Position numbers and translations under genes: made by a program. A stretch of DNA of 27,488 bases from an uncultured Dehalococcoidia bacterium (lineage in GTDB: Bacteria; Chloroflexota; Dehalococcoidia; SM23-28-2), in contig CAZSHQ010000001.1 in assembly GCA_964606995.1 (NCBI GenBank), positions 1-27,488 of the forward strand, in the 5' to 3' direction. Positions 11,387-24,735 of this stretch are shown one piece after another. Position 1 is the first letter of the stretch, and each line of letters begins with the position of its first letter. The notes beneath the pieces were generated by a model. The model saw only the letters and a list, made by a program, of their open reading frames with translations. It was not told where the DNA came from and ran no database searches.

Positions 11387-11415
11387 CGTAACGAGGAGCC
11401 CTCTTCTCGCGTCTG
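11387..11415 (+). promoter_or_regulatory. Putative autoregulatory ECF-sigma promoter
   Basis: CGTAAC (11387-11392), 17 nt, CGTCTG (11410-11415). The same motif occurs twice upstream of flp. Confidence 0.65.
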
Positions 11416-11565
11416 AATATGTGGCGGAACAAGTGTTAGTGAGCGTGGGCTCACACACTAGCGAATCTCCCGGGTCCCTGCCCTCCCAAGGGATTCGGAG
11501 GTAGCGACTGGGGAGATGAGTGCTGGCAAAGGCTGGCGGCGATTCACCGCCAGAGAACGGAAGGT

Positions 11566-12156
11566 ATGAACCTCCCTTTCATCGGCAGATCTTCGGCTGT
11601 AGCCGCCGACGAAAAAGAGGGGCGCGCAGAGCATGCGGCTCCCGGCCTCTCTCTGACGGACTTTTCTGCTCGCTACCGCCACTTCTACCCCAAGGTTTTT
11701 GCCTTCGTCTACGGTCGCGTCCAGGACAAAGAAGTGGCCCTGGACCTCGTCTCGGAAGTGTTTGAGAAGGCCTTTTCCAAGGGTTCCTCCCTGCGCTCCG
11801 ATGGAGCCTTTGAGGCCTGGCTATTCACCATCGCCCGCAACGCCGTAGCCAGCCACTGGCGCAAAGAGAAACCGGCAGCCAAGGCCCTGCACAGCGTCGC
11901 CTGGGAGTGGGAGCTCACACAGCATCATCGCGACCCCGAACAGACCCTCCTGGAACGTGAACAGATGGCGATCCTTGTCTATCATGTGCACCAGCTTTCC
12001 CAACGGGAGCAAGAGATCCTCTCTTTGAAGTTCGATGCTGAACTAAGCAATCAGCACATCGCCCGGGTTATGGGGACCAGCGAGGTTAACGTACGGGTTA
12101 CCCTCTACCGGGCGCTGCATAAGCTGCGAGATCGGATGAAGAGTGTGCCACAATGA
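11566..12156 (+). CDS. ECF family RNA polymerase sigma factor
   Basis: sigma2 'DLVSEVFEKAF...AWLFTIARN' and sigma4 'LSQREQEILSLKF...IARVMGTSEVNVRVTLYRAL', with no sigma3. ATGA overlap with the downstream gene. Confidence 0.92.
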   Translation: MNLPFIGRSSAVAADEKEGRAEHAAPGLSLTDFSARYRHFYPKVFAFVYGRVQDKEVALDLVSEVFEKAFSKGSSLRSDGAFEAWLFTIARNAVASHWRKEKPAAKALHSVAWEWELTQHHRDPEQTLLEREQMAILVYHVHQLSQREQEILSLKFDAELSNQHIARVMGTSEVNVRVTLYRALHKLRDRMKSVPQ

Positions 12157-13541
12157 ATGAAGACGAACGCGCCAAGAAGCTCTGCGATGCCATAGACGCC
12201 ATCCTCCAGGGCGAAGAGCCCAAGATGGAGCTGGATGACCAGGAGCTTATTGAGCTCCTGCGCATCGCCCGCTTGCGTCACCAGGCCGGTCAGGCTCTGG
12301 CCAATGTCGGTTTCACCTACCAGGAGCTGCTGCGGCGTGTCCTCCAGGCCCGTATCGTAGCCCGCCAGATGGAGGAGGGCGGTGAGAAAGCTGATGATCC
12401 GCCCCCAGAAGTGAGCAGCATTATGGACGAAGACCCAGGGCAGTTCCTCGACCCCCTGGATCCTGGCTATGGTAAGCTTGTCAACTTCCTGGACTTCCAG
12501 CCCAGGCCGGCGCACGCTGCTCCTCCCGTCCAAGCCACAGCCGTCCACACGCACCCGACCGTCGCCCGCCAGGCCCGGCCGCGAACGCTGATTCCCAGCT
12601 GGTCGCGCCGCAGCGACCGGAGCTCGAAGAAGGCGGAAACCCTTTCCGCTGCCCTCGACCGTCTCCTTTCCAGCCGAAAGCGCACCATCTCGGTGGGCGA
12701 CCCCGACATCGACGAGCTGGTCCAGGTAGCCCAACTGCGTCGGTTCGTCGGCCAAAGCCTGGCCGCCGCCGGCAGCCCTTACAAGAGACGGCTCTGGACA
12801 GTCCTGCGCATGCGCTTGGCTGCCTCTCTGCGCCGCCAGTCCTACGCTGCCCAGCGGCCCTCCGTCATCGCCGCCGTTGGCCGCTTGTCGTGGCAGCAGG
12901 CAGCAGCGGTAGCCGCTGGCATAGCCCTGTTGCTAGCTGCCCTGGGGCCCCTACCGGCCACAGGCTTCGCCGACCATCCCATAAACCACCTCCTCAACCT
13001 TGTGGAGCAACACGTGGGCGTAGAGGAGGTCGATGGGCCGCCTCCCAACGAAGTGCCCATGACGGCCACTGAGGAGCTTATCGCGCCAGAAGAAGCCGCG
13101 CATCGTTTCGGTCTTGCCGTTCGCCAGCCTTCCTATCTGCCCGAGCGTTTCCAACTGGCTCGCTCGAGCTACCATTCTCAAAGCGGCAGCACCCCCGAGC
13201 AAGGCATGCTCGTCCTCATCTACACCGTCGGTGGCACTGATCCCACAATCCTTGCCGATACAGATCCCCAACTGTTGATATACGAGGAGAGAGCGTCCTC
13301 TAACAGCGTGGCGGTGATGAATGGCCAGGCCGAGGACATAACCCTGGCAGGTCATGTGCCCGGCACCTATGCACCGGCCCTCTGGGCGATGGGGGACCAA
13401 GGGACCCTCGAGGGCACAGACGCCAGCGCTGAAAGCCTGATCTTCGACGACGACGACGTTCGGGTTATCATCACCTACAGGAACGGCGATCAAGAAAAAG
13501 AAGAACTCCTCCGCGTCGCTGAGTCGATGCTAAGCCAATAG
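12153..13541 (+). CDS. Putative anti-sigma factor: two tandem cytoplasmic helical domains, one TM helix, DUF4367-like extracytoplasmic domain
   Basis: Translationally coupled to the ECF sigma. TM at about aa 250-268. C-terminal 'EEAAHRFGLAVRQPSYLPERFQL' is DUF4367-like. Internal repeat at aa 1-68 and 159-222. Confidence 0.7.
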   Translation: MNEDERAKKLCDAIDAILQGEEPKMELDDQELIELLRIARLRHQAGQALANVGFTYQELLRRVLQARIVARQMEEGGEKADDPPPEVSSIMDEDPGQFLDPLDPGYGKLVNFLDFQPRPAHAAPPVQATAVHTHPTVARQARPRTLIPSWSRRSDRSSKKAETLSAALDRLLSSRKRTISVGDPDIDELVQVAQLRRFVGQSLAAAGSPYKRRLWTVLRMRLAASLRRQSYAAQRPSVIAAVGRLSWQQAAAVAAGIALLLAALGPLPATGFADHPINHLLNLVEQHVGVEEVDGPPPNEVPMTATEELIAPEEAAHRFGLAVRQPSYLPERFQLARSSYHSQSGSTPEQGMLVLIYTVGGTDPTILADTDPQLLIYEERASSNSVAVMNGQAEDITLAGHVPGTYAPALWAMGDQGTLEGTDASAESLIFDDDDVRVIITYRNGDQEKEELLRVAESMLSQ

Positions 13542-13583
13542 GAGACCTCAGGACACTTCGTCCTGACAGGCCCAAGACAAGCG

Positions 13584-13625
13584 AAGGGGCGGCCAGCGTG
13601 CTGGCCGCCCCTTTAGTTTATTCTT
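13584..13625. terminator. Strong hairpin terminator between convergent genes
   Basis: AAGGGGCGGCCAGC (13584-13597) / GCTGGCCGCCCCTT (13600-13613), followed by a T-rich tract on plus. Confidence 0.8.
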
Positions 13626-13645
13626 TCCCCTTTTAGCGCGTACGT

Positions 13646-13828
13646 TTAGTCTAGGTCCTCCCGCAGCCTTCTCTCCCTCATCATCTCGTACAGTAGATTC
13701 TCCACCACCATCAGCAGCAAAAGGACCGCCCGCTGCTGCCGCCGCGGCAGACGAGCCAAGAACTGCAACAGATCAGCGTCCACCTTCTCGGCCAGAGCAA
13801 CGCGGTTCTCACCGGTGTTGGCCATCAC
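13646..13828 (-). CDS. Small protein homologous to the C-terminal domain of the adjacent XRE regulator (SinI-like)
   Basis: 20/31 ungapped identity to the XRE C-terminus (VDADLLQFLARLPRRQQRAVLLLL vs VDPDLLRFLARLPRNRQRRLLLLL). Starts 2 nt after the XRE stop. Start is GTG 13828 or ATG 13825. Confidence 0.8.
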   Translation of the reverse strand: MMANTGENRVALAEKVDADLLQFLARLPRRQQRAVLLLLMVVENLLYEMMRERRLREDLD

Positions 13829-13830
13829 CC

Positions 13831-14250
13831 CTAATCCCGCCGGCTGGACAACCTGGAATCCTGGCTAGCCGATCCCTCTCCCTCTCCCCCTCCCCGCGTG
13901 TCCTCCACCAGGTGCTCCATGCCCTCCAGCAAGAGGAGCAAACGCCGTTGCCGGTTACGAGGCAGGCGGGCCAGGAAGCGCAGAAGATCCGGGTCCACGT
14001 TGGCCTCATAGCCCTCGTAGACCTGCTTCAGAGTGCGCACCGTCGGGTAGCCAGCGGCCTCGAACAGATCGTCGGCGTCCACGTGTATGGCCTGAGCAAC
14101 CCTAAGGATGACGGCGGCACTGGGATTCCGCACGTCCCCGTTCTCCAACTGAGATAGGTAACCCTGGCTGACAGCAGCCTCACCGGCTAGCTGCCCCTGA
14201 GTAAAACCTATCTCCTCGCGTAGTTCCCGAATCCTTTTGCCTAGCTCCAT
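13831..14250 (-). CDS. XRE/SinR-like helix-turn-helix transcriptional regulator (xre1)
   Basis: 'LGKRIRELRE.G.TQ.QLA..A.VSQGYLSQLE....NPS' HTH_3 pattern plus a C-terminal helical domain. Confidence 0.9.
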   Translation of the reverse strand: MELGKRIRELREEIGFTQGQLAGEAAVSQGYLSQLENGDVRNPSAAVILRVAQAIHVDADDLFEAAGYPTVRTLKQVYEGYEANVDPDLLRFLARLPRNRQRRLLLLLEGMEHLVEDTRGGGEGEGSASQDSRLSSRRD

Positions 14251-14279
14251 ATTCCCACCGCCTCTATGAGCGTGCTGAC

Positions 14280-14308
14280 ATTCTCACCCTTTTTCTCAAA
14301 TTTGTCAA
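14280..14308 (-). promoter_or_regulatory. Leftward sigma70-type promoter (xre1 and mini-gene)
   Basis: On minus: TTGACA (14308-14303), 17 nt, GAGAAT (14285-14280). Confidence 0.45.
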
Positions 14309-14316
14309 TACAACTC

Positions 14317-14345
14317 TTGACAGTAACTCAATATTGATATATTAA
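14317..14345 (+). promoter_or_regulatory. Rightward sigma70-type promoter with palindromic spacer
   Basis: TTGACA (14317-14322) followed by AT-rich TG-a-TATATT/TATTAA (14335-14345). Perfect palindrome TCAATATTGA (14328-14337) lies in the spacer. Confidence 0.6.
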
Positions 14346-14425
14346 TAGGTTGGTTTAGAAGTTCCTTTCAAGAACGGTCTACACCATATACTCGGTAATC
14401 TTGTCCAAAGGAGGTGGTTGAGAGG

Positions 14426-14635
14426 GTGAACAACAAAGCTGACAAGCTCTGCCGCGCCATCGATGACCTTCTCCTGCCTCATCCTCGCAAGACCTTGGTG
14501 GTAGAGCCTGAGGCTCAAGAGTTGCTCCGGCTGGCCCACCTCCGCCGTGAGGCCGGCCGCAGGATTGCTGCCATAGGCGCCTCTCGGCTGGAGAAAAGCT
14601 GGCAACAGCTGGAAGCAACTCTGCGGGTCCGATAG
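14426..14635 (+). CDS. Small stand-alone copy of the anti-sigma cytoplasmic domain
   Basis: SD AAGGAGGTG precedes GTG 14426. Ungapped identity is 24/63 to repeat 1 and 23/63 to repeat 2 of the 12153 protein. Confidence 0.78.
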   Translation: MNNKADKLCRAIDDLLLPHPRKTLVVEPEAQELLRLAHLRREAGRRIAAIGASRLEKSWQQLEATLRVR

Positions 14636-14679
14636 CCCCGGCCCTACCGGCCGCAAGCGGCCAAAGGAGGTGATAGCCC

Positions 14680-15036
14680 ATGAAGATCTGGCGAACGCCG
14701 CTCCTGCTCCTAGTAGCAGCCATTGCCCTCCTGGCGATCGCCGGCGGAGCGCTCCTGCTCCAGTCTTCGGACGAGGCCGAGGCGAAAATCGTCTCCGGCG
14801 ACTCCCTGTCTTGCAGCGCAGTGAGCCCTTCAGGCGACGCGCTTGTCGTCGCTCCTGACTCAGCCGGAACATCTCTGACAACCACTGATACTGCCGCCTC
14901 CTCAGCCCAGTGCTACTTTGCCGGCATTACCAGGTTCCCGAACGGTTGCGGTAGCCAGGACCTCTATGTCTTGAGATACCTGTGCTACGATCCAGCCAAA
15001 GACTGGTTCTACGTAAACTACATGTACTGCATGTAG
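14680..15036 (+). CDS. Small exported Cys/aromatic-rich hypothetical protein
   Basis: Perfect SD AAGGAGGTG. N-terminal MK plus hydrophobic stretch, then A-E-A. Cys at positions 45, 78, 90, 102 and 117. Confidence 0.7.
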   Translation: MKIWRTPLLLLVAAIALLAIAGGALLLQSSDEAEAKIVSGDSLSCSAVSPSGDALVVAPDSAGTSLTTTDTAASSAQCYFAGITRFPNGCGSQDLYVLRYLCYDPAKDWFYVNYMYCM

Positions 15037-15060
15037 CCCAGGCATCAGACCAACCCTCTC

Positions 15061-15090
15061 GGACGGCGGCGCCAGTTCCTGCCGCCGTCC
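15061..15090. terminator. Hairpin between convergent genes (likely bidirectional terminator)
   Basis: GGACGGCGGC (15061-15070) / GCCGCCGTCC (15081-15090), a perfect 10-bp stem. Confidence 0.6.
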
Positions 15091-15458
15091 TACTCTTTCC
15101 CTCCTTGACAATCGTCTTCCACTGCCAGCCGATCGCCCACAGTAGTCTCCGAGCGTGCGGCTGTGCCCGCCGCCACCTCCAGGGCATCCCGGGCCCCCCG
15201 GCCGCCCAAGGCCACCCGAAAGGGCCCGAGCGCCGGCGCCACCTTCACCACCTTGGCCTCCCCATCCAGAAAGATCACATCGATCGGAAAGCGCATAAGG
15301 AAGGTCTGCACCGACGAGCAGGGCGAAAGTAGCAGACCCTCCCCTTCCTTCAGACCGTGGCGCCCCATAAGGCCAACGAGCCGCGCCCAAAAGCTTTCCG
15401 CCTTCCGCGCATGCCCAGCCACGGTCGTTCCCTTGCTGACGTTTACAATCCTGGCCAC
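15090..15458 (-). CDS. DUF192 family protein
   Basis: 'AESFWARLVGLMGR...EGEGLLL.PC.SVQTFLMRFPIDVIFLD...LEV.AG' matches the DUF192 pattern. Last gene of the tad operon. Confidence 0.85.
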   Translation of the reverse strand: MARIVNVSKGTTVAGHARKAESFWARLVGLMGRHGLKEGEGLLLSPCSSVQTFLMRFPIDVIFLDGEAKVVKVAPALGPFRVALGGRGARDALEVAAGTAARSETTVGDRLAVEDDCQGGKE

Positions 15459-15473
15459 AGTGGAGATACGATA

Positions 15474-15845
15474 TCACTGGCTTGGCAGAGCGTCCAGCCG
15501 CTGCCCCATGCTCTCCAGCAGGAGCAGTATGTAGCGCTGCTGCTCCTGCGACAGGCCAGCCAAGAATCTTAGCAGGTCAGGGTCAACCCTAGCCTGGTAG
15601 TTGCTGTTGGCTTTGCTAAGGCCCCTGACCGGCGTATAGCCAGCCGCGTCCAGCAGCTCATGGGGATCCACATACAGGGCGCTCGCCAGGCGCAATAGGA
15701 TGGCGGCGCTAGGATTCTTAACTTCTTCCCTCTCCAACTGGCAGAGGTAGCCCTGGCTCACCTCCGCGCAACCGGCCAGTCGGGCCTGGCTTAGGCCCAT
15801 CTGCTCCCGCAGTTCGCGAATTCGTCTGCCTAGCCTCATCTCCAC
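15474..15845 (-). CDS. XRE/SinR-like transcriptional regulator (xre2), paralog of xre1
   Basis: Same HTH ('VSQGYLCQLE...NPSAA') and the same C-terminal 'VDPDLLRFLA' domain. Starts 17 nt after the tadC stop. Confidence 0.88.
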   Translation of the reverse strand: MEMRLGRRIRELREQMGLSQARLAGCAEVSQGYLCQLEREEVKNPSAAILLRLASALYVDPHELLDAAGYTPVRGLSKANSNYQARVDPDLLRFLAGLSQEQQRYILLLLESMGQRLDALPSQ

Positions 15846-15862
15846 GTCCCTCTGGCCCCCTA

Positions 15863-16765
15863 CTACAGCAGTTGCTCTCCTATCCGGATAACAGCCGGGC
15901 CCAAGATCACCAGCATAAAGGCAGGAAAGATGCAGATGACCAGTGGAAACATCATCTTGATCGGGGCTTCGTGCGCCAACTGCTCCGCCCGCTGCCGTCG
16001 ATGCGTCCGCATCTGGTCCGACTGCACCTTCAGCACATGGCCGATGCTCACCCCTAGCTGTTCGGCCTGGATGATGGCGTTGACAAAGGAGATGAGCTCT
16101 GGCACCCCCGTGCGCTGGCCCAGGTCGCTCAAGGCCTCCCGCCGCAAGCGCCCCATGCCCACCTCTCGCAGCGTCTGCGAAAGCTCCTTGGCCAGAGGAC
16201 CCTTCATCTGCTCACCGATCTTGGCCAGGGCAGCGTCCAGACCCAGCCCCGCCTCGACGCAGGTAGTGATTAGGTCCAGGGCATCGGGCAGGGTCTTGAT
16301 GATCAACCGCTGCCTCGACCGCACCGTTGTCCTCAGCCAGAACAAGGGCAGACTGAAGCCGATGATAGCCATCACCATCAGGCCCAGAAATCCCTGAGTG
16401 CTGATTCCCCCCAGAGTGGCAAGGGCAACGATAGTCAGCCCGGCGAAGAAAGCGATACAGACGGCCCAAAAGGTAACGAAGGTAGTAGCCGTCATAGAAC
16501 TGCCAGCCATGACGAGCGATTTCTGGATGCTAGCTAGGAAGTTGACCGGCAGCATTCCTGCCAGACCCTTACCGAAACCCTGAATAGTGGGGCGCAGTAT
16601 CCTATCGCTGAAGGGCAGGACCAGCTCCGACACGTCGCCGGCGGCCACCTGCCGTCGCAGCGTCTCCATGCGCATCTCCGTCACGCTCGTCCGCGGCCTC
16701 ACAAGGCCCAGCACCAGGAAGGCCACGGCAGCGAAAACGACGAAGGCGATCATCAGTGCAAACAT
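15863..16765 (-). CDS. tadC: Tad pilus inner-membrane platform protein (T2SS F family)
   Basis: 'LPDALDLITTCVEAGLGLDAAL', 'GVSIGHVL..QSDQMR..RRQRAEQLA.EAPIKMMFPL'. Confidence 0.9.
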   Translation of the reverse strand: MFALMIAFVVFAAVAFLVLGLVRPRTSVTEMRMETLRRQVAAGDVSELVLPFSDRILRPTIQGFGKGLAGMLPVNFLASIQKSLVMAGSSMTATTFVTFWAVCIAFFAGLTIVALATLGGISTQGFLGLMVMAIIGFSLPLFWLRTTVRSRQRLIIKTLPDALDLITTCVEAGLGLDAALAKIGEQMKGPLAKELSQTLREVGMGRLRREALSDLGQRTGVPELISFVNAIIQAEQLGVSIGHVLKVQSDQMRTHRRQRAEQLAHEAPIKMMFPLVICIFPAFMLVILGPAVIRIGEQLL

Positions 16766-16771
16766 CTGCTG

Positions 16772-17746
16772 CTACACCTCAATACTCATCATAGAGCGAA
16801 TCAGAAAGATACCCATGACCTCCAGCCCCCCTGCTATGAGGAGCAAGACCTTGCCGACAGTTTCAGTAAATAGAGGGGCCATGTAATCGGGGTTCATGGC
16901 GAACATGATCAGGCCCACGAAGATAGGCAGCGCGCCGATGACAACCCCCGTCATGCGCTGTTGAGCGGTGAGGGTCTTGATCTCTCCCCGAATGCGGTCC
17001 CGTTCCCTTATGGTGTAAGCCACGTTGTCCAGCGTCTGGGCCAGATTGCCCCCGACCGACCTCTGAATAGCGACGGCGGTAACAACCATCTCCATGTCGG
17101 GGCTAGCGATGCGATCAGCCAGAGCCTGGATAGCGACCTCAGCCCCGGCACCCAGGTTCGCATCCTGGAGCATGCGCTTGAGCTCATCCGCCAGCGGTGG
17201 CGATATCTGACGGCTGGCGTATTCGAAACCCTGCAGCAATCCATACCCCGATTTCAGGGAGTTGGAGACCAGGGTGAGCATCTCCTCCAGTTGACCGTTG
17301 ATCTTGGCCTGGCGGCTGCGCCGCCGACGACCCACGTACCAGCGGGGCAAGAAGTAGCCAATCGGAGCCGCCGGCAAAGCGATGAGCCAGTTGCGCGTCA
17401 GCAGGAGAGTCAGCAGAAGGAGAAGCATAGCCACGGCAACCCTGAGGGTCATGTATTCGCCTACCCGCAAGGGAATGCCCGCCCGTTCCAGCGCCAGGAC
17501 TGAGCTCTCCACTTGGCGGCTGCCACCCAGAATGCCAGCGAGGGGGCCCAGCTTGCCGCGATCGGTAGGACGCAACAGCGACTCATCACCGACGCCGCTG
17601 GGGCGACTCGTCTCGCCCCGACTAAGCTCCTCCAGGCGGCGGCTAAGTGCCCCCTGCCCAGAGCCCCGAATCTGAGAAATGCCAATGACAAGCAGCGTTA
17701 CAGTGGCCATCACGGCCACGGCTACTAGAAGCGCCAGCGGTTGCAT
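16772..17746 (-). CDS. tadB: Tad pilus inner-membrane platform protein (T2SS F family)
   Basis: 'LVSNSLKSGYGLLQG', 'IQRSVGGNLAQTLDNVAYTIRER..IRGEIKTLTAQQRMT'. Confidence 0.9.
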   Translation of the reverse strand: MQPLALLVAVAVMATVTLLVIGISQIRGSGQGALSRRLEELSRGETSRPSGVGDESLLRPTDRGKLGPLAGILGGSRQVESSVLALERAGIPLRVGEYMTLRVAVAMLLLLLTLLLTRNWLIALPAAPIGYFLPRWYVGRRRRSRQAKINGQLEEMLTLVSNSLKSGYGLLQGFEYASRQISPPLADELKRMLQDANLGAGAEVAIQALADRIASPDMEMVVTAVAIQRSVGGNLAQTLDNVAYTIRERDRIRGEIKTLTAQQRMTGVVIGALPIFVGLIMFAMNPDYMAPLFTETVGKVLLLIAGGLEVMGIFLIRSMMSIEV

Positions 17747-17750
17747 CGGC

Positions 17751-19130
17751 CTACCACTCCGCTACGTTCTGAAACAAGCCCTCAGGCACAGCAATGCCGG
17801 CCAGGGCGAAGCCTTCGGCGAAGGTAGGACGGATGCCCGTGGACTGCAGCCGCCCCAAAATACGGCCGTGCTCATCGATGCCCTCCTGCTCAAAGCGGAA
17901 GATGTCCTGGAGAGTGACAATCTCCCCCTCCATGCCGCTCACCTCAGTGATGTGGGTTATGCGGCGGCCGCCGTCGCGGAAGCGCGCTATCTGAAGAACA
18001 AGGTGAAGGGCCGACGACATCTGCTCACGGATGGCCCGCATTGGCAGGTCCAGATTGGCCATTAGCACCATGTTCTCCAGCCTGGCCAGAGCATCGCGAG
18101 GCGAGTTAGAGTGAATGGTGCTGAGGGAGCCCTCGTGGCCGGTGTTCATGGCATTGAGCATGTCGAACGCCTCGCCGCCACGCACCTCACCGATGAGGAT
18201 ACGGTCGGGCCGCATGCGCAGGGTGTTGCGCAACAGCTCCCGCTGGGTCACCTCCCCCCGGCCATCCACGTTGGGGGGGCGAGCCTCCAGGCTGATGACG
18301 TGCGGCTGCTGAAGCTGGAGCTCCAGAGGGTCCTCGATGGTCACAATGCGCTCGGAATCGGGAATGAAGGCAGACACGGCGTTGAGAAGGGTCGTCTTGC
18401 CGGTGCCTGTGCCGCCGGAGACCAGGGCATTCAAACGAAGCTCCACACAAGCCCCCAAGAACTGGCCTATTTCGGCGCTGAGGGTGCCCACCTTCACCAG
18501 GTCATCCATGGTCAACTTGCTTCTAAGGAACTTGCGGATGGTCATGGTGGGGCTCTTGGGGGCCAAGGGAGGGATAATAACGTTCACGCGCGAGCCATCG
18601 GCCAGGCGGGCATCCACCATGGGAGAGCTCTCGTCGACGCGCCGCCCCAGGGGAGCGATGATCCGCTCCACAATCTGCATGACATGGTCCACATCGCGAA
18701 AGCGAACGTCGCTCTGATACATGATGCCATCCCGCTCGAAGTACACCTCCTCGGGCGAGTTCACCATCACCTCAGAGATAGACGAGTCGTGCAGCAAGGG
18801 CTCGATGGGTCCCAGACCCACCACCTCATCCACCACCCGGGTGGCCACGGCATCCCGCACCAGGGCGTTCAGAGACTCCCGCCCCAGCAGGGCCTTTACT
18901 GCCTCCTCCACCGCCTGACGCCGCTTGTCAGGAGGCATCGCCTCCAACTTCTCGGCTTCCAGCTCATCGATGAGCCTCTGATGGAAGCGATAGACCAGTT
19001 GCTCTAGTTCCTCCCCCAAACGAGCCGAGCGGCGGGCCGGCGCTGCCACCTGAGAACTAGACTTACCTGGTGGCTGGTCACCGTCATTCTGCTCTGGAAG
19101 TCGTTCAGTTCGCCGGCGCCACTGACTCAT
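17751..19130 (-). CDS. cpaF: Tad pilus assembly ATPase CpaF/TadA
   Basis: Walker A '[12 protein letters not shown]', 'TIEDPLEL', '[18 protein letters not shown]', '[12 protein letters not shown]'. SD AAGGAG. Confidence 0.95.
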
Positions 19131-19142
19131 CTTTCTCCTTCC

Positions 19143-20447
19143 TTATCTGGTCCATTCCTCTGCCGCCGGTGTCGCGGGTACCTCCGACACCGCCTCGGCA
19201 GCCCCTTCCGCGGCGACCCCTGGCTCGGCCTGCGGCTCGCCCTGTGGCCTTCCCAGCAGAGGGATGCGGTCGCCCAGGCGCTCCAGCATGCCCTTGGGCC
19301 GGGAGCGGATGCCGCCAATGGCGTAGGACAGCTCCACAAGGCTCTGAGAGGCTTTGGACTTGGGCTTGGCCGCCACTATGGGCATACCCAACTGCGTGGT
19401 CTGGGAGATGCTACGATCGTAGGGGATTGTCCAGAAGATCTCCTTGCCCAGAACCCGTCGAATATCGACCCGTGTGTCGCGGTGGGCATCGCTGGTGTGG
19501 TTGATCACTATCTTCACCTTCTCCGACGGGAAGGACCAGGAGCGAAGCATCTCCAGGGCCAGGATGGTATCCTTCAGGCTGGCCAGATCGGGAGTGGCTA
19601 TCAGCAGAAGAATGGTGCACATCTCCAGAGCACGAGACACGATGTCGTTGAAGGCACCGGGTGTGTCCAGAAGGACGTAATCGTGGGTGGTGGCCAGGAC
19701 CGACACCATCTTCTCGATGTGGCCGGGGTGGATGCTGTGCCATTCGGATGGCCGAATGGGCGCCGGCAAGATGGCCACGCCAGTGCCATGCGTGTACAGG
19801 CAGGACTGGACGGCCTCGCGATCGATCTCCTCGTCCGGTAGAGCCAGGTCAGAGATGCTGCGGTCGGTGGGCATGTCCATGAGGATGGCCACGTCGCCAA
19901 AGCGGGTGTCCAGGTCCACCAGGGCCACCGATTGGCCCGTCTTCTGCACCAGGGCAGTAGCCAGATTGGTAGCGATGGTAGTCTTGCCGATCCCTCCTTT
20001 GGCCCCGAAGATGGTAACCACCGTCCCGTAGGCCTGGGCCTCCACCTCCCCTGCCAAGCGCTGCTGGCGCCTCTCTTCCTGAGCAAGAGCAGCGTGGATG
20101 GAGCGACCCAGATCCTCCTCCTGCAGAGGAGCGACGAGGTAGTCCTTGACCCCCACCTGCATGGCGCGCCGGATGTAACTAGGGTCGCCGATTGATGAGT
20201 AGGCGATGATCGGCACCTGGGGGAGAACGTCGCCCACTGACTCGAGGGTCTGCAGGGAGCGAGCTATAGGCTCCTCCAGGGCCACCACCACCACCTCAGG
20301 CGTCGTCTCGCGGGCCAGGGTCATGGCCTCCATCCCGTAGCCGGCAGCGCCCATCACAGCGAAGCCTGACAGGGCCAGCATTCGCTGGGTTTCCGCCCGG
20401 CTGGACGGATCCTGGTCGATTATGATTACCTTGGGGTTCCTAGCCAC
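19143..20447 (-). CDS. cpaE: CpaE/TadZ: receiver-like domain plus ParA/MinD ATPase
   Basis: N-terminal REC fold, deviant Walker A 'GAKGGIGKTTIA', 'VDLDTRFGDV'. SD GAGGAGG precedes a GTG start. Confidence 0.88.
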   Translation of the reverse strand: MARNPKVIIIDQDPSSRAETQRMLALSGFAVMGAAGYGMEAMTLARETTPEVVVVALEEPIARSLQTLESVGDVLPQVPIIAYSSIGDPSYIRRAMQVGVKDYLVAPLQEEDLGRSIHAALAQEERRQQRLAGEVEAQAYGTVVTIFGAKGGIGKTTIATNLATALVQKTGQSVALVDLDTRFGDVAILMDMPTDRSISDLALPDEEIDREAVQSCLYTHGTGVAILPAPIRPSEWHSIHPGHIEKMVSVLATTHDYVLLDTPGAFNDIVSRALEMCTILLLIATPDLASLKDTILALEMLRSWSFPSEKVKIVINHTSDAHRDTRVDIRRVLGKEIFWTIPYDRSISQTTQLGMPIVAAKPKSKASQSLVELSYAIGGIRSRPKGMLERLGDRIPLLGRPQGEPQAEPGVAAEGAAEAVSEVPATPAAEEWTR

Positions 20448-20465
20448 CTAAGGCCTCCTCCCGCA

Positions 20466-21341
20466 TTAACGTCCGAAAGGATTGGGAAGGTTAGAAGGCA
20501 AGATCTCAGGGTTGACAATGGCTGGCACCGTTGACTCGTCCGTTTCTCCCACCGGCCGCAACGACAGTTTGAGAACGCCCATCTCCTCCGCCAGGGCCAG
20601 CTTCTGAGCCTCCGCGGGTGTCACTGCCAGGGTCACGTTGGTGGCATCGGGATTGGGGTCGGCGGGATTGGGGAGAACGGGCTGAGATCCCTCACCGGTC
20701 GTGCCGTCGTCGCCCTCCTCAGGCAAGGCCTCAGCCACCTCCTGGGCCACTGCCAGCACCTGCACGTTCTGCAAGACAGTGACCGCCACGTAATCATCAA
20801 AGTCCTCCGAGGACGTGGGGTCGTCCTCCTTGATCCCGTAGAACGTAACATCGAAAACGCCGATGACATCCACGAAGTCCCCGGGCAGGATCAGGCCACC
20901 GGCGCCCGTGACCTCACTCACCTGCACGGACACCGCTCGCTGGTCGGGCGGCACCACATAAGAAAGGGGCAATTCCTCGTCACCCGCCCCCGGCACCTCC
21001 CTGGCGGTTGCCGCCACCTTGCTGCTCAGAATCTGTTCCTCGGCAGCGATAGGCAGACGAGTGACCATGCCAATCAACTGATCAGTGGATGAAAAGGCAT
21101 CCGGATGCACTGCGCTCTCTGCCAGGGACTTCACTTCCACCATTTCAGCCGTGATGCGCACACGAGCGGACATGTCCTCCGTGGCGACCACCACTGGCTT
21201 GGTGGCCGCGGCGCTCGCCTCCCCGTCACCCCCACCCTGGCTGAGGTAGACGTAGACCAGCACCGCGCTAACAAGGCCCAAGAAAAGGGCCACTAATAAG
21301 ACCGCTTTGTTGCTCCTGCCGCCCCCAACGCGATTTCGCAT
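20466..21341 (-). CDS. cpaB: Flp pilus assembly protein CpaB/RcpC
   Basis: N-terminal TM, SAF domain 'VVVATED....RIT.EMV', 'RAVSVQVSEVTGAGGLILPGDFVDV', 'VLQNVQVLAV', 'VTLAVTPAEAQKL'. Start set at ATG 21341. Confidence 0.9.
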   Translation of the reverse strand: MRNRVGGGRSNKAVLLVALFLGLVSAVLVYVYLSQGGGDGEASAAATKPVVVATEDMSARVRITAEMVEVKSLAESAVHPDAFSSTDQLIGMVTRLPIAAEEQILSSKVAATAREVPGAGDEELPLSYVVPPDQRAVSVQVSEVTGAGGLILPGDFVDVIGVFDVTFYGIKEDDPTSSEDFDDYVAVTVLQNVQVLAVAQEVAEALPEEGDDGTTGEGSQPVLPNPADPNPDATNVTLAVTPAEAQKLALAEEMGVLKLSLRPVGETDESTVPAIVNPEILPSNLPNPFGR

Positions 21342-21447
21342 CACAGGTTCCCCCTCATGCCCGCAGCTCTGCCGGCCAGGCAAGCTGCTAACGGGCGCGG
21401 GCCTTCTTCTGCCCGCCCCCTACCTCGAACGTTCGCTCACGACCCGG

Positions 21448-22716
21448 TCATGGGTTCAGCGTCGGCACCAGACGGATGCCGGTCACGAGCTCCCAGCCTA
21501 TCGTTTCGAAAACCGGAGTCAGGTCCCCTCCCTCGGGCTCTTCGAAGTAGTGGTACTCGTCGGTGGCCATGGCCTGCAGGACATCCCGCGCCGGGGCGTC
21601 CTCCCACTCACCGCTGTCGCACCCGCACAGACTTCCGGGTCCCGGATCTTCCACGCCATAGCCAATCGTGTATACCTCGATCCCCAGAGCCTTGGCGTCT
21701 TCCGCCATTTCGACGGCGTGCTCGCAGGGGTTGTAGCTGTCGGGCTCGGGGCCGCACTGACCGTTCTGGCCATCCTCTGGCTGGTTGGCCGCTCCGTCGG
21801 AGAGGAAGATTATCCCCCAGTGCTCGTCGGGCCTGCCGTTGGTCTGCAACTCCTCGGCGGCGGCCCACATCGGATCGCCTAGGTCCGTGCCCACCTGGGA
21901 CGTTTTCAGGCAGCTAATGTTGGCCACCAGCGAGCTGCTCTCGTCCGGCGAGCCGTCGGGGTTCTGATAGTCATCGCTCAGATGGGTGGTCACCCAGCGC
22001 GACTCCGGCAGGTTCGGATAGGGCAGCGGCGGGTTGCACTGCCAACCCCCCGGCCACGACCACCAGCACTTGTGCGGTTCGCCCCAGCAGTCGCTCGAGC
22101 TCTTGGCCGGGCCCAGGGCCGCCAGGCCTACCCGCTGCCACTCCTCGGAGAACACTCCCAGGATGGCCTTAGCCGCGTTCTTGGCGTTCGTCATGTCGCT
22201 GCCGCTCATGCTCTGCGTCCGGTCGAGCACCATCATCACATCCAGCGCCCGGAAAGGAGCGGCGCCACACAGACCACGGCAGCCAGCGGCGGTGGCCGAA
22301 ACCGTGACGTCGTCCAGGCCCAGAAGCGGTGCGAAATTCAGGGGGACGTTGCGCTCAGCGTGAACGACGATGGTATCCCACCTGTCCGCCGACGAGTCGC
22401 AGGCGATCTCGTATTCACTGGTGCAGGTGAAGCTTATGTCCACGCTGTCCCCATCGGTTACATCGACCTCGTTCTTATCGAGCCACTCGTGAGCGTCTGC
22501 CTCAGCCTCGGTCCACGAGTCAGGCAATTTCTGGGCAGCCGCTAGAGCAGCGGCGTCAACAGCCTTCTGGAGCTCGCGCTTCTCATGCATGAACATCCCT
22601 ACGTCCAGCACCAGCGCCGCGAAGCCCAGGATCACTATCATGGCCAGGGTCCCCAGCACCAGGCCTTGACCGAACTCCTGTCGCCAGAGGGAACGCAGTA
22701 GCCTCAATAGCCTCAC
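21448..22716 (-). CDS. tadG: TadG-like pseudopilin with von Willebrand A domain
   Basis: Prepilin-like 'G/QGLVL...AALVLDVG...ELQKAVDAAALAAA' and vWA 'LDVMMVLDRTQSM...GTDLG...IIFLSDG'. Start is GTG 22716 (SD GGAG) or GTG 22725 (overlapping the tadE stop). Confidence 0.8.
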   Translation of the reverse strand: MRLLRLLRSLWRQEFGQGLVLGTLAMIVILGFAALVLDVGMFMHEKRELQKAVDAAALAAAQKLPDSWTEAEADAHEWLDKNEVDVTDGDSVDISFTCTSEYEIACDSSADRWDTIVVHAERNVPLNFAPLLGLDDVTVSATAAGCRGLCGAAPFRALDVMMVLDRTQSMSGSDMTNAKNAAKAILGVFSEEWQRVGLAALGPAKSSSDCWGEPHKCWWSWPGGWQCNPPLPYPNLPESRWVTTHLSDDYQNPDGSPDESSSLVANISCLKTSQVGTDLGDPMWAAAEELQTNGRPDEHWGIIFLSDGAANQPEDGQNGQCGPEPDSYNPCEHAVEMAEDAKALGIEVYTIGYGVEDPGPGSLCGCDSGEWEDAPARDVLQAMATDEYHYFEEPEGGDLTPVFETIGWELVTGIRLVPTLNP

Positions 22717-22721
22717 GCTAC

Positions 22722-23192
22722 TCACTCCAATCGAAAGTCAGCAGTAGAACTCAGGGTGAAGGACTCGCCAACAGTGCCGCCGCTGACCACGCCGACGATG
22801 CCAGCCAGAGGAGTGATCAGTGAGTAATCGTAGCTCACGTCCACCACCACCGACTCCCCCGGCAGACCTTCGGCATTGGTAACAGTGACCTCCAGGTCGT
22901 CCCCTAACGCGCCTGCCGTGTCGCGCACTTTCCCCTCGATGCACTGGTCGAGCGAGCCCTGCCCATAGCAGGGAGAGCCCACCGCGTCAAGGGCAGGATG
23001 CACAGCCCCCAGACGGCCGCCTTCACGCGCCGAGTTGGTGACTGTAATCCAGGCATGGAAAGCCATGCCAAAATCGACAATTGCACAAAGCACTAGAAGG
23101 AAGATGGGCAACACAAGGGCAAACTCCACCAGCGACTGTCCACCTTCCCCCTTGCCTCTGCGTCTGGTGATGCGCTTAAGGATAGCTAGCAT
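22722..23192 (-). CDS. tadE: TadE-like minor pseudopilin
   Basis: 'G/QSLVEFALVLPIFLLVLCAIVDFG...NSAREGGR' TadE signature. Confidence 0.9.
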   Translation of the reverse strand: MLAILKRITRRRGKGEGGQSLVEFALVLPIFLLVLCAIVDFGMAFHAWITVTNSAREGGRLGAVHPALDAVGSPCYGQGSLDQCIEGKVRDTAGALGDDLEVTVTNAEGLPGESVVVDVSYDYSLITPLAGIVGVVSGGTVGESFTLSSTADFRLE

Positions 23193-23218
23193 GGGCTTCC
23201 TCGTGCTTGACTGCTTCT

Positions 23219-23298
23219 GCAGGAGCGTCGCGGCTCAACCCGAGCGCCTGACGGCACATCTGCCTTGGTTAGCCCTCGTTGGACCGCGACACCCCTGC
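23219..23298 (-). other. Intercistronic RNA stem-loop between flp and tadE
   Basis: 15-bp stem (plus 23219-23233 with 23284-23298). Its two imperfect positions are G-U pairs only on the transcribed minus strand. Confidence 0.6.
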
Positions 23299-23321
23299 TG
23301 TTCTGTTTCTACCTGACTGGC

Positions 23322-23510
23322 CTAGCCTCCGAGAGCGGCCGCTATCTCGTCCAGGAAGCCAGCAATGGCCAAACCGATGATCCCCAAAGCACCCATGCAT
23401 ACCACGGCAATGAGGGCCATGATCAGGCCGTACTCGGTTAGGGCCTGCCCCGACTCCGAGCGGAAGCGGGTTACCAGCCCCACGAAAAACTCGCTGATCT
23501 TGCTTAGCAT
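23322..23510 (-). CDS. flp: Flp family type IVb/c major pilin
   Basis: 62 aa with 'G/QALTEYGLIMALIAVV' (E+5, Y+6 Flp motif). SD GGAGG upstream. Confidence 0.92.
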   Translation of the reverse strand: MLSKISEFFVGLVTRFRSESGQALTEYGLIMALIAVVCMGALGIIGLAIAGFLDEIAAALGG

Positions 23511-23570
23511 CGTTCGTTTGTACCTCCATTAGGCTCCTGCTTTTAGCTGCGGGATAGCTTGCAGGTTCAC

Positions 23571-23687
23571 CTAGGTTGTGATAAGAAAGAAGAGACGTCG
23601 GGCCCCGCGCACTCCGGCGTCCGGGGTGGGGATTTGCGGTCCTGCCAGGCCAGCTCTCCTCACCCCGTCCGTGTTTGTTTTTCTCAT
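23571..23687 (-). CDS. Candidate 38-aa upstream ORF in the flp leader (MRKTNTDGVRRAGLAGPQIPTPDAGVRGARRLFFLITT)
   Basis: ATG 23687 to TAG 23571. Perfect SD TAAGGAGGTG (23703-23712) is 15 nt away, an unusually long spacing; an in-frame ATC lies closer. Confidence 0.3.
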   Translation of the reverse strand: MRKTNTDGVRRAGLAGPQIPTPDAGVRGARRLFFLITT

Positions 23688-23765
23688 TCGCCTCTCGATA
23701 TCCACCTCCTTATCTCAGCAATAGCGACAAGCTAGGCTTATCGCCCATCTAGCCTACCTGAAGGT

Positions 23766-23793
23766 TAGACGCCTGAAACAGGATGTTGTTACA
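23766..23793 (-). promoter_or_regulatory. ECF-type promoter P1 of the flp/tad operon
   Basis: On minus: TGTAAC, 16 nt, CGTCTA. Confidence 0.7.
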
Positions 23794-23838
23794 GTTATGT
23801 CCACTTGCCTCCCAAATCCCTCTCGCCTTTCACTTCAA

Positions 23839-23867
23839 TAGACGTATGACACCGCCCTACCGTTACC
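23839..23867 (-). promoter_or_regulatory. ECF-type promoter P2 of the flp/tad operon
   Basis: On minus: GGTAAC, 17 nt, CGTCTA. Confidence 0.62.
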
Positions 23868-24000: not shown

Positions 24001-24735
24001 ATGCCGATCGTCGCCGCCCTCCTCGGCCTCATAACCGGCCACATACTGGAAGTGCTCCTGGACCGTTTCTACTCCGACGCGCCTCCCGGAGGCCCTCTCG
24101 TCCGCTGCTCGGCCTGCCGTTCCCCTATCCGCCTCCTTCACCTCCTCCCCCTGCTAGGCTACCTCTGGCATCGTGGCCGCTGTCCCGACTGCGACCAGCG
24201 ATTGCCCATTCGCGTCCTCCTCCTGCCGCCGGCCAGCGCCCTCGTGTTCGCCCTTACCGCCCTGGCCAGCGACCAGTGGGGCCCAACGATCCTGGGCGGC
24301 CTGTTCGCCGCTATCTTCCTGGCCCTGATGACCACAGACCTGGAGCGCCGCCTCATCCCCAATCGCATCGTCTACCCCGCCATGCTCCTGGCCATCGCTG
24401 TGTCCTGCGCCTGGCCCGACCGGGGCATAGGACAAACCCTCGCCGGCGGCGGCCTGGCCTTCGCCATCATGCTCATCGTCTACATCGTCTCCCTCGGCCG
24501 CTTCGGCTTCGGCGATGTGAAGATGGCCACTCTCATGGGCTTCGCCGTGGGCTTCCCTGCCGTGACGGTGGGCCTCTTCTTCACGGCCATCAGCGCCGGC
24601 CTGGCAGCCGCGCTCCTGTTGCTCACAGGGGTCATGCGGCGAGGCCAGTACATTCCTTATGGCCCCTTTATCGCCCTGGGAGCCATCATCTCCCTCCTCT
24701 GGGGCGACACCATCATCGACTGGTACACGGGCTAG
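24001..24735 (+). CDS. A24 family prepilin peptidase with N-terminal Zn-binding domain
   Basis: 'RCSAC...GRCPDC' N-domain. Catalytic aspartates in 'TTDLERRLIPN' and 'GFGDVKM'. C-terminal 'IPYGPFIALG'. Confidence 0.9.
   Translation: MPIVAALLGLITGHILEVLLDRFYSDAPPGGPLVRCSACRSPIRLLHLLPLLGYLWHRGRCPDCDQRLPIRVLLLPPASALVFALTALASDQWGPTILGGLFAAIFLALMTTDLERRLIPNRIVYPAMLLAIAVSCAWPDRGIGQTLAGGGLAFAIMLIVYIVSLGRFGFGDVKMATLMGFAVGFPAVTVGLFFTAISAGLAAALLLLTGVMRRGQYIPYGPFIALGAIISLLWGDTIIDWYTG

Follow-up and report, generated by a model that had tools for sequence, protein, structure and literature searches.

Tad pili drive attachment and biofilm formation and, to our knowledge, their regulation is known only in a few cultivated Proteobacteria and Actinobacteria. 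In Streptomyces, the extracytoplasmic function (ECF) sigma factor sigma-BldN and its non-canonical membrane anti-sigma factor RsbN serve surface fibres (chaplins and rodlins). In Deinococcus, the XRE-type repressor DdrO controls DNA-damage genes, and we know of no free paralogue of its C-terminal domain. In Bacillus subtilis, the SinR/SlrR/SinI/SlrA system combines two XRE-type paralogues with a small protein that consists of the C-terminal domain only, encoded beside an extracellular-fibre operon (PMC3917956, PMC3163267); the sinI-sinR mRNA is bicistronic and thus offers precedent for a mini-gene co-transcribed with its regulator (PMC3917956). In Actinobacteria, RsiG, the anti-sigma partner of WhiG, is built from a duplicated helical unit, its single-unit forms work as small soluble anti-sigma factors in dimeric form, and the switch governs type IV pilus genes in Rubrobacter (PMC8325347). 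Here we compare these systems with a stretch of 27,488 nucleotides (nt) from an uncultured Dehalococcoidia bacterium of the lineage SM23-28-2 (contig CAZSHQ010000001.1, assembly GCA_964606995.1; the window in what follows). In this window, a Tad pilus locus is accompanied by genes for an ECF sigma factor, its putative membrane partner, two XRE-type regulators (XRE1 and XRE2), a free copy of the XRE C-terminal domain (miniX) and a free copy of a module of the sigma partner (miniAS).

Our best explanation of the whole is a lineage-specific Tad regulatory island made of a conserved core and a clade-specific add-on, and our confidence in it, taken as a whole, is evenly divided. The principles at work are already known, namely an ECF sigma factor with an anti-sigma factor, a repressor with a truncated paralogue and the duplication of an anti-sigma unit; the combination itself appears to be new. 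An earlier note on the window had already proposed it as a candidate undescribed system, and a full-text literature search, which had the ECF group catalogue outside its scope, returned no instance of it, no ECF sigma factor controlling a Tad pilus and no XRE/miniX family. The comparison set consisted of 57 loci, from a scan of one genome per species, and a further 50 metagenome loci. Gene order was surveyed with a tblastn matrix of all window proteins against the loci, and the background for promoter motifs came from first-order Markov simulations over 848 kb of loci. Families were assigned by scans of Pfam (relaxed to E values up to 10) and NCBIfam, and fold and hydropathy were read from AlphaFold2 (AF2) models and translations. 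The taxon labels of the 57 loci were Dehalococcoidia, Chloroflexota or Chloroflexia with one exception, a 6-kb contig (L004, JAIVWR010000077.1) that carries the island at 77-92% protein identity to the window in a metagenome-assembled genome (MAG) labelled Acidobacteriota, most likely a binning error.

The sigma factor, the promoters that resemble its own and the pilus genes are arranged as follows (aa, amino acids):

11388-11414, plus strand: ECF-type promoter of the sigma operon, an exact match to GTAAC-N17-CGTCT, 178 nt before the start codon
11566-12156, plus strand: ECF sigma factor, 196 aa (Sigma70_r2, r4, r4_2)
15863-23192, minus strand: tadC, tadB, tadA/cpaF, tadZ/cpaE (with a receiver domain), cpaB/rcpC, a tadG-like gene (vWA) and tadE, from Pfam and NCBIfam
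23322-23510, minus strand: flp pilin, 62 aa, with Flp_Fap below the gathering score and the processing motif G/QALTEYGLI
23768-23792, minus strand: ECF-type promoter P2 of flp, TGTAAC-N16-CGTC, from the motif scan
23841-23866, minus strand: ECF-type promoter P1 of flp, GGTAAC-N17-CGTC, from the motif scan (exact GTAAC-N17-CGTCT at 23840-23866)
24001-24735, plus strand: prepilin peptidase of the TadV/CpaA type (Peptidase_A24, A24_N_bact), divergent from flp

The expected components of a Tad/Flp (type IVc) locus are present, with flp, the TadE/G pseudopilins, CpaB/RcpC, TadZ, the TadA ATPase, TadB/C and the prepilin peptidase. The sigma factor has Sigma70 regions 2 and 4 only and scored 82.6 bits against TIGR02937 (cut-off 42.9), which places it in the ECF superfamily; its best NCBIfam match was the BldN-type ECF subfamily, at 116 bits and far below the cut-off of 206. 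The motif GTAAC-N15-17-CGTC occurred 112 times in the 848 kb of loci, where 9.6 +/- 3.2 copies were expected. Forty-four of these copies stood 100-180 nt 5' of the sigma gene, an equivalent site being present in 44 of the 47 sigma-bearing loci. Another 20 preceded flp, 17 were located immediately before cpaB in a more distant clade, and about 12 marked the head of the pilus cluster beside the divergent prepilin peptidase gene. The copies left over were mostly intragenic and their number was within the range of chance. Given this excess and the positions of the motif at sigma, flp, cpaB and the cluster head, direct control of the pilus by the sigma factor is well supported in silico, and we consider it highly probable that it transcribes flp/tad from promoters of its own type. 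As the earlier note had observed, the same ECF-type motif precedes sigma and flp; the match is exact at both sites, the flp site seen in the note being P1, and the arrangement recurs in dozens of genomes. The copy before the sigma gene itself is consistent with autoregulation. Of the two flp promoters, P2 is nearer to the gene and better conserved: among the 42 independent metagenome loci that extend far enough upstream, all 42 have P2 and 30 have P1, and the promoter scan revealed no housekeeping-type promoter upstream of flp. One locus (L025) keeps the cpaB motif, although no sigma gene was found up to 10 kb away from miniX. A third match of ECF-like form falls inside XRE1 (13932-13958); it has a -10 mismatch and lies over non-conserved Arg-Asn codons, and we judged it to be due to chance.

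The sigma leader (178 nt; 11415-11565, plus strand) is conserved in the close clade. A hairpin at 11533-11553 (CTGGCGGC...CCGCCAG) stands directly before the ribosome-binding site and shows compensatory changes in two relatives (L010 and L002), which suggests translational or stability control of sigma. At the other end of the island, loci of the distant clade have 1-3 kb of extra sequence between the peptidase-side ECF-type promoter and flp (L047 at 718-2353; also L018, L019, L022, L026, L027, L038, L040 and L046). In L047, the sole locus inspected, this region contains an apparently frameshifted gene for a large membrane protein, glycosyltransferase-like when its translation was read by eye, which may be a pilin-glycosylation gene of the same regulon.

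The gene that overlaps the sigma gene encodes the second part of the core:

12153-13541, plus strand: anti-sigma-like membrane partner, 462 aa, with a 4-nt overlap with the sigma stop codon
12165-12359, plus strand: partner module 1, aa 5-69, from a hidden Markov model (HMM) search
12615-12827, plus strand: partner module 2, aa 155-225, from the HMM search
12891-12959, plus strand: transmembrane (TM) helix of the partner, about aa 247-269, from hydropathy
about aa 290-460 of the partner, plus strand: RseB/LolA-like ectodomain, with confident beta strands in the model and RseB fold matches

Family scans, the gene overlap and hydropathy all agree with the earlier note that an ECF sigma factor and a membrane anti-sigma-like partner are encoded here. 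The note had also described miniAS as a free copy of the partner's cytoplasmic domain, and this requires some refinement. In BLASTP comparisons miniAS aligned with the partner twice, over aa 4-58 and over aa 160-227, at 37-40% identity; because of these two matches, we read the 'cytoplasmic domain' as a tandem repeat of a module of about 65 aa. An HMM built from miniAS located two modules in the window partner (module 2 scoring 54 bits, module 1 scoring 41) and up to three in remoter homologues. In most loci the overlap between the sigma and partner genes is 4 nt, and the protein that follows sigma begins with the module in every sigma-bearing locus except L036, where only a 23-codon open reading frame (ORF) is present. 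The remainder of the protein varies widely: some forms have 415-468 aa and include a TM helix and an ectodomain, others have 240-283 aa or about 112 aa, and there are soluble forms as well. The forms of about 112 aa (L020, L026, L031, L034, L035 and L037) have a partial module match of about 30 aa and a C-terminal hydrophobic segment, and in L015 (10714-10932, minus strand) the protein following sigma is a soluble single module of 72 aa. Free single modules thus occur naturally in the anti-sigma position. As the module is the only constant part of the post-sigma protein, it is presumably the sigma-binding unit; we think it likely that it is the anti-sigma domain, and the position of the partner gene supports the idea that the partner would bind and inhibit sigma.

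In the AF2 model of the partner, the modules appear as helical hairpins of low confidence, followed by a TM helix (247-263) and a confident beta-rich ectodomain whose best fold matches were RseB; two homologues of the partner are named or marked DUF4367. The arrangement resembles that of sigmaE-RseA-RseB and of DUF4367 anti-sigma factors in that a protein with sigma regions 2 and 4, an overlapping membrane partner, an AAC...CGT promoter and an RseB-like half-barrel are all present. It differs in having one to three tandem modules of a novel 65-aa type, in the fusion of the RseB-like domain to the anti-sigma protein and in its inferred regulon, which is a pilus and not envelope repair. A duplicated helical unit, single-unit soluble forms and a connection to pilus control are features shared with RsiG. 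However, WhiG is of the FliA type and not an ECF sigma factor, single and twin modules occur here in one genome, and the c-di-GMP motif of RsiG, E(X)3S(X)2R(X)3Q(X)3D, was found in none of 59 module-bearing proteins. The comparison with sigma-BldN/RsbN is limited by the fact that target genes, anti-sigma factor and phylum all differ. A single MatP_C match on the anti-sigma protein (E 0.016; 15.9 bits, below the cut-off of 24) was read as chance.

The XRE genes and miniX make up the remaining part of the core:

13583-13614, both strands: bidirectional terminator-like hairpin in the gap between the anti-sigma gene and miniX, a perfect 14-bp stem with T-tracts on either strand
13646-13828, minus strand: ORF of miniX, 59 aa, without a helix-turn-helix (HTH), with a probable ATG start at 13825; a paralogue of the two-helix domain at the C-terminus of XRE1 and XRE2
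13831-14250, minus strand: XRE1, 139 aa, HTH_3/HTH_31 and a helical C-terminal domain
14280-14308, minus strand: housekeeping-type promoter of XRE1-miniX, TTGACA-17-GAGAAT, from a consensus scan
15090-15458, minus strand: DUF192 protein (PF02643), whose gene closes the tad transcription unit; many loci have it, some do not
15474-15845, minus strand: XRE2, 123 aa, inside the tad operon, 61% identical to XRE1

The earlier note had reported two XRE paralogues, one of them in the tad operon, and a free copy of their C-terminal domain; all three genes stood up to comparison. XRE2 begins 17 nt 3' of tadC within the operon. XRE1 and XRE2 have almost the same sequence around the recognition helix, so that the two proteins probably share operators. 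MiniX aligns to both XRE C-terminal domains via VDxDLLxFLAxLxxxQQRxxLLLL, the motif common to all three paralogues being VDPDLLxFLxxLxxxQQRxxLLLL. Across the clade miniX is 66-97% identical, with the stretch RRQQRxVLLLLMVVENLLYEMMRERR nearly invariant; its conservation exceeds that of the XRE C-domains and is among the highest of any protein in the locus. The ratio of nonsynonymous to synonymous substitution rates (dN/dS) of miniX in the close clade was 0.15, where the neighbouring genes (sigma, the XREs, anti-sigma and flp) ranged from 0.12 to 0.33. An exact-sequence look-up of both mini-ORFs returned nothing, probably because gene callers had chosen other start codons; a homology search then turned up miniX in many MAGs, annotated as a hypothetical protein of 59 aa.

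The AF2 model of XRE1 has an HTH followed by helices at 87-94 and 98-120. Its best fold matches were RghR, DdrO (over the full length) and SinR in complex with SinI, and its sequence matches in the PDB were the SinR chains 1b0n, 3qq6 and 5tn0 and DdrO, which alone reached past the HTH. Pfam, sequence and fold agree that XRE1 carries an N-terminal HTH_3 domain like the one in SinR. DdrO, in which an XRE HTH is followed by a small helical dimerisation domain, was the best full-length match in both sequence and fold; no gene for a protease of the COG2856/IrrE type was present among the scanned ORFs of the window. A profile of the C-domain gathered 34 clusters among 1.84 billion representative proteins, in which the domain was either free (54-95 aa), fused to an XRE HTH (118-155 aa) or, in two cases, part of a tandem double fusion. 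The latter proteins (P0370, 274 aa, L058; P0373, 264 aa, L059; both on contigs of about 1 kb) fuse two XRE-plus-C-domain units, which, on Rosetta-stone reasoning, suggests joint action of the two XRE paralogues. At the C-terminus of XRE1 homologues, a Gly/Glu-rich linker of variable length leads to a conserved terminal R-L-S-(S) (13831-13900 in the window), a tail that could be a degradation or interaction tag.

With regard to expression, 35 of 48 loci have a promoter of the type TTGACA-N16-19-xAxAAT that stops some 30 nt short of XRE1. MiniX is predicted to be co-transcribed with XRE1 from this housekeeping-type promoter, and XRE2 from the sigma-driven operon. The parts are those of the Sin system: two XRE-type paralogues, a small C-domain-only protein, predicted co-transcription and a neighbouring operon for an extracellular fibre. 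Given the two-domain architecture of XRE1, which resembles that of SinR and DdrO, the Sin analogy is a fair model for XRE1, XRE2 and miniX, and a decoy role for miniX similar to that of SinI is plausible. By the same analogy, hetero-oligomers of the XREs and miniX might matter in pilus control, and here we see the chances as balanced. Nevertheless, the predicted co-transcription and high conservation of miniX speak for a permanent partner no less than for a conditional decoy. The mini-gene is also located 3' of its regulator and not 5' as in Sin, and the island is connected with an ECF sigma factor and a Tad pilus where Sin has Spo0A and TasA/EPS.

The add-on occupies the interval between the two XRE genes:

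14317-14345, plus strand: candidate promoter of miniAS and the Cys protein, TTGACA-17-TATTAA, read by eye (the strict scan did not report it)
14332-14347, unstranded: operator-like AT-rich palindrome of 16 bp, TATTGATATATTAATA, overlapping the candidate miniAS -10
14414-14635, plus strand: miniAS, 73 aa (69 aa if GTG at 14426 is the start), a single free anti-sigma module
14680-15036, plus strand: small exported or membrane-anchored Cys protein, 118 aa, with a hydrophobic N-terminus and a conserved Cys pattern
15061-15090, unstranded: terminator-like hairpin in the gap between the Cys-protein gene and the DUF192 gene, from a hairpin scan

Together with the hairpin at 13583-13614, the hairpin at 15061-15090 bounds four transcription units. 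The spacer between XRE1 and miniAS contains two TTGACA boxes that point in opposite directions. The earlier note had placed the two mini-genes on opposite arms of this divergent promoter region; that holds for miniAS, but miniX is the second gene of the XRE1 arm. MiniAS itself is a real gene, with a dN/dS of 0.30 in the close clade, so that both mini-ORFs are under purifying selection within the range of their neighbours. Only 11 of 49 loci, that of the window included, have it in the interval between XRE1 and XRE2, and L015 has a more divergent copy. The Cys protein is confined to the closest clade and has five Cys residues, four of them invariant within the last 45 aa; its hydrophobic N-terminus agrees with the note's secreted protein, but 'Cys-rich' was too generous a description. 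Neither of the mini-proteins nor the Cys protein matched a family in Pfam (to E 10) or NCBIfam. The genes for miniAS and the Cys protein are a later insertion in one subclade.

The palindrome is unique in the window, where 0.01 copies were expected, and all 12 near-matches in the 848 kb of loci were located in the spacer upstream of XRE1, beside a divergent gene of the miniAS type. That the candidate -10 lies inside the palindrome suggests an XRE operator and probably links miniAS and the Cys protein to the XREs; this is a classical operator position, for which the adjacent XRE proteins are the prime candidates. A further step, that miniAS serves as a soluble anti-sigma factor under XRE control, we put forward tentatively, as a possibility somewhat short of an even chance. 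The earlier note had miniAS titrate the anti-sigma factor, but a free sigma-binding module would act on sigma instead.

The order glcD, glcF, sigma, anti-sigma, miniX, XRE1, (DUF192), XRE2, tad operon, flp and peptidase was found in almost every locus and persists down to 45-60% protein identity, so the co-occurrence in relatives that the earlier note proposed to look for is present, the gene order recurring in 57 loci. MiniX follows XRE1 directly in 51 of 51 loci, an XRE gene begins within 120 nt after tadC in 47 of 48 (the exception being a frameshifted assembly), and in 42 of 43 sigma and miniX are no more than 3 kb apart. These counts point to a conserved core of sigma, anti-sigma, XRE1-miniX and the XRE2 of the tad operon in about 50 species. 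With the selection on the mini-genes and the excess of promoter motifs, the recurrent gene order shows that the arrangement did not come about by chance. Since miniX is universal and miniAS limited to a subclade, the system is not symmetric: both mini-genes are under selection, as the note's 'double' decoy implied, but the two differ in their spread (51 of 51 loci versus 11 of 49). Further, because miniAS is missing in most species, a double decoy cannot be the conserved logic. The island is flanked by metabolic genes, including those for glycolate oxidase subunits and F420 genes. In the closest genome (L007) identity falls from 97% to 84-92% across the island, which is only a moderate drop.

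The genes, their paralogy, the selection acting on them, their co-occurrence, the promoter motifs and the palindrome were all read directly from the sequence and its comparison; from these we infer which proteins contact one another or DNA, whether each interaction is positive or negative, and what kind of signal is sensed. The ECF sigma factor would transcribe its own operon and flp/tad from (T)GTAAC-N16/17-CGTC promoters. The product of the overlapping gene would hold sigma inactive via its N-terminal helix-loop-helix module of about 65 aa, which in the window genome is doubled and tethered by a single TM helix to an extracytoplasmic RseB/LolA-like (DUF4367) sensor domain. Given this tether, a signal from the envelope or the surface would release sigma and turn the pilus genes ON. 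The two-helix C-domain shared by XRE1, XRE2 and miniX would mediate homo- and hetero-oligomers, such that miniX and XRE2 may alter DNA binding by XRE1, in analogy to SinR/SlrR/SinI. In the subclade with the add-on, miniAS and the exported protein with its four conserved Cys residues would be transcribed divergently from XRE1 under the control of the palindrome. By repressing miniAS, the XRE module may set the level of soluble anti-sigma factor and, through it, the threshold of sigma activity.

Several of our results weigh against this scheme. The C-domain of XRE1 has no detectable homology to the SinR/SinI domain in Pfam searches to E 10 or in a PDB profile search, which gave chance matches, and the likeness is one of two-helix topology only. 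The Sin analogy drawn by the earlier note is therefore architectural: the two-domain XRE1, the free C-domain and the second paralogue all bear it out, but not sequence kinship of the C-domain. MiniX has an invariant tail of its own, VVENLLYEMMRERR, which the XREs lack, and this tail, together with the extra conservation of miniX, hints at a partner other than an XRE. The module matched no known anti-sigma domain in Pfam (to E 10) or NCBIfam, class I anti-sigma domains (ASD) and zf-HC2 included, and the N-terminal module was modelled at low confidence only. The flp and sigma promoters of the loci scanned showed neither a copy of the palindrome nor any other obvious XRE operator, and palindrome and miniAS alike are missing from most loci. 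Linkage itself must be read with care: glcD and glcF are likewise syntenic with the island, so that general synteny accounts for part of the co-occurrence, which alone overstates functional linkage. Finally, L036 (8382-11157) has lost the entire Tad operon, the anti-sigma gene and the sigma motif, and keeps XRE1, miniX and sigma intact between F420 genes and the remaining chromosome, which calls for caution in describing XRE1-miniX as strictly dedicated to the pilus.

These points bear unequally on the alternatives. The full model of the earlier note, in which miniX titrates the XREs, miniAS titrates sigma or the anti-sigma factor, and autoregulation together with XRE2 yields a bistable switch, has in its favor that every component exists and is under selection, that the motif before sigma is consistent with positive feedback, that XRE2 is part of the sigma-driven operon and that the palindrome ties the XRE arm to miniAS. 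There is also precedent for bistability from the same list of parts in SinR/SlrR/SinI/SlrA (PMC3917956). However, about three quarters of the species with the core lack miniAS, miniX is made along with XRE1 and is not obviously a conditional input, and sequence says nothing on bistability, which is pure conjecture; we regard the model as rather unlikely. We find it unlikely as well, if slightly less so, that miniX serves as an adaptor or obligate subunit and binds a separate partner, such as RNA polymerase, sigma or the anti-sigma modules, with the XRE C-domains as docking sites through which XRE and sigma modules are physically coupled. Such a role would account for the conservation of miniX, for its invariant C-terminal helix that is absent from the XREs and for its production always together with XRE1. 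It could also draw on a profile comparison in which L-P-x-x-Q-R-x-x-L-L-L aligned with sigma region 4.1, and on the name 'DNA-directed RNA polymerase specialized sigma24 family protein' given by JGI to one 59-aa miniX homologue (P0137). Yet this name was assigned automatically, and the hhalign comparison of the LPxxQR region of miniX and the XRE C-domain with region 4.1 was not significant (E 0.07-0.13 per single comparison, probability <1%), nor was there a Pfam sigma match to E 10. Mimicry of sigma region 4 is retained as a reading of low probability only. In this reading, which is in our view very improbable, the C-domain of XRE1, XRE2 and miniX mimics region 4.1, docks on the anti-sigma modules and competes with sigma, so that a repressor family would have given rise to a partner switch like that of PhyR-NepR-EcfG. 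If it were true, repression and sigma release would be fused in one switch and pilus expression could be a heritable ON/OFF state.

The equal synteny of glcD and glcF, the lack of an XRE operator at the pilus promoters scanned and the persistence of XRE1 and miniX without Tad genes in L036 could also mean that the XREs and miniX are near the pilus genes by inherited synteny only and regulate something else or themselves. What makes this quite improbable to us is that XRE2 sits in the tad operon, 17 nt past tadC in the window, in essentially every locus, that L025 keeps XRE1 and miniX beside the Tad genes with sigma not nearby, and that the palindrome on the XRE1 side adjoins the gene for a paralogue of the sigma-binding module. 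The XRE HTH does match antitoxin and phage repressor families weakly, as it would if XRE1-miniX were a toxin-antitoxin or prophage-type immunity pair; but miniX is a paralogue of the C-domain of the regulator with no toxin fold, and in about 50 species the pair occupies a fixed chromosomal site that has no mobile-element genes nearby, so that we find this scarcely credible. We therefore continue to favor the Tad regulatory island with a conserved core and a clade-specific add-on.

One further element was found between the ECF-type promoters and the flp start:

23576-23668, minus strand: GC-rich leader element of flp followed by a T-rich tract, recognised by its near-invariance across genomes and contigs

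This 93-nt element is near-invariant in 7 genomes and 50 metagenome contigs, the synonymous divergence (dS) of coding sequence among the genomes bearing it being 0.45-0.77; L013 has a divergent copy. It ends in a weak terminator-like hairpin and T-tract, and a Flp-type ORF (E-[YF]-[GA]-[LIV]) lies downstream in 45 of 45 contigs with at least 200 nt beyond the element. A known riboswitch was considered and rejected, as there was no Rfam match at gathering or relaxed thresholds, folding was no better than that of shuffled sequences (z = -0.28) and the core shows no compensatory changes; a common variant, GGGGTG to GGGGCG, disrupts a predicted pair. A coding ORF was rejected as well, on account of upstream indels and of substitutions without codon periodicity. 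A site for protein binding is one possibility for the element, a new leader RNA another.

With regard to what these findings would mean, the island, if our explanation is correct, would provide the first regulatory model for surface structures of Chloroflexota, in a widespread and uncultured lineage of Dehalococcoidia, and the Tad pilus would join the processes under a dedicated ECF sigma factor. It would also bring two uncharacterised families of small proteins to light, the 59-aa miniX and the 65-aa sigma-partner module, the latter in tethered, repeated and free forms. Taken together, the loci would form a graded set from nature in which the origin of anti-sigma factors and repressor antagonists through duplication and truncation can be followed. 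The natural minimal forms of the post-sigma protein (that of L015 and the set of about 112 aa) would be ideal material for work on sigma binding, and a heterologous host would lend itself readily to tests of the promoter motif, the palindrome and the small proteins.

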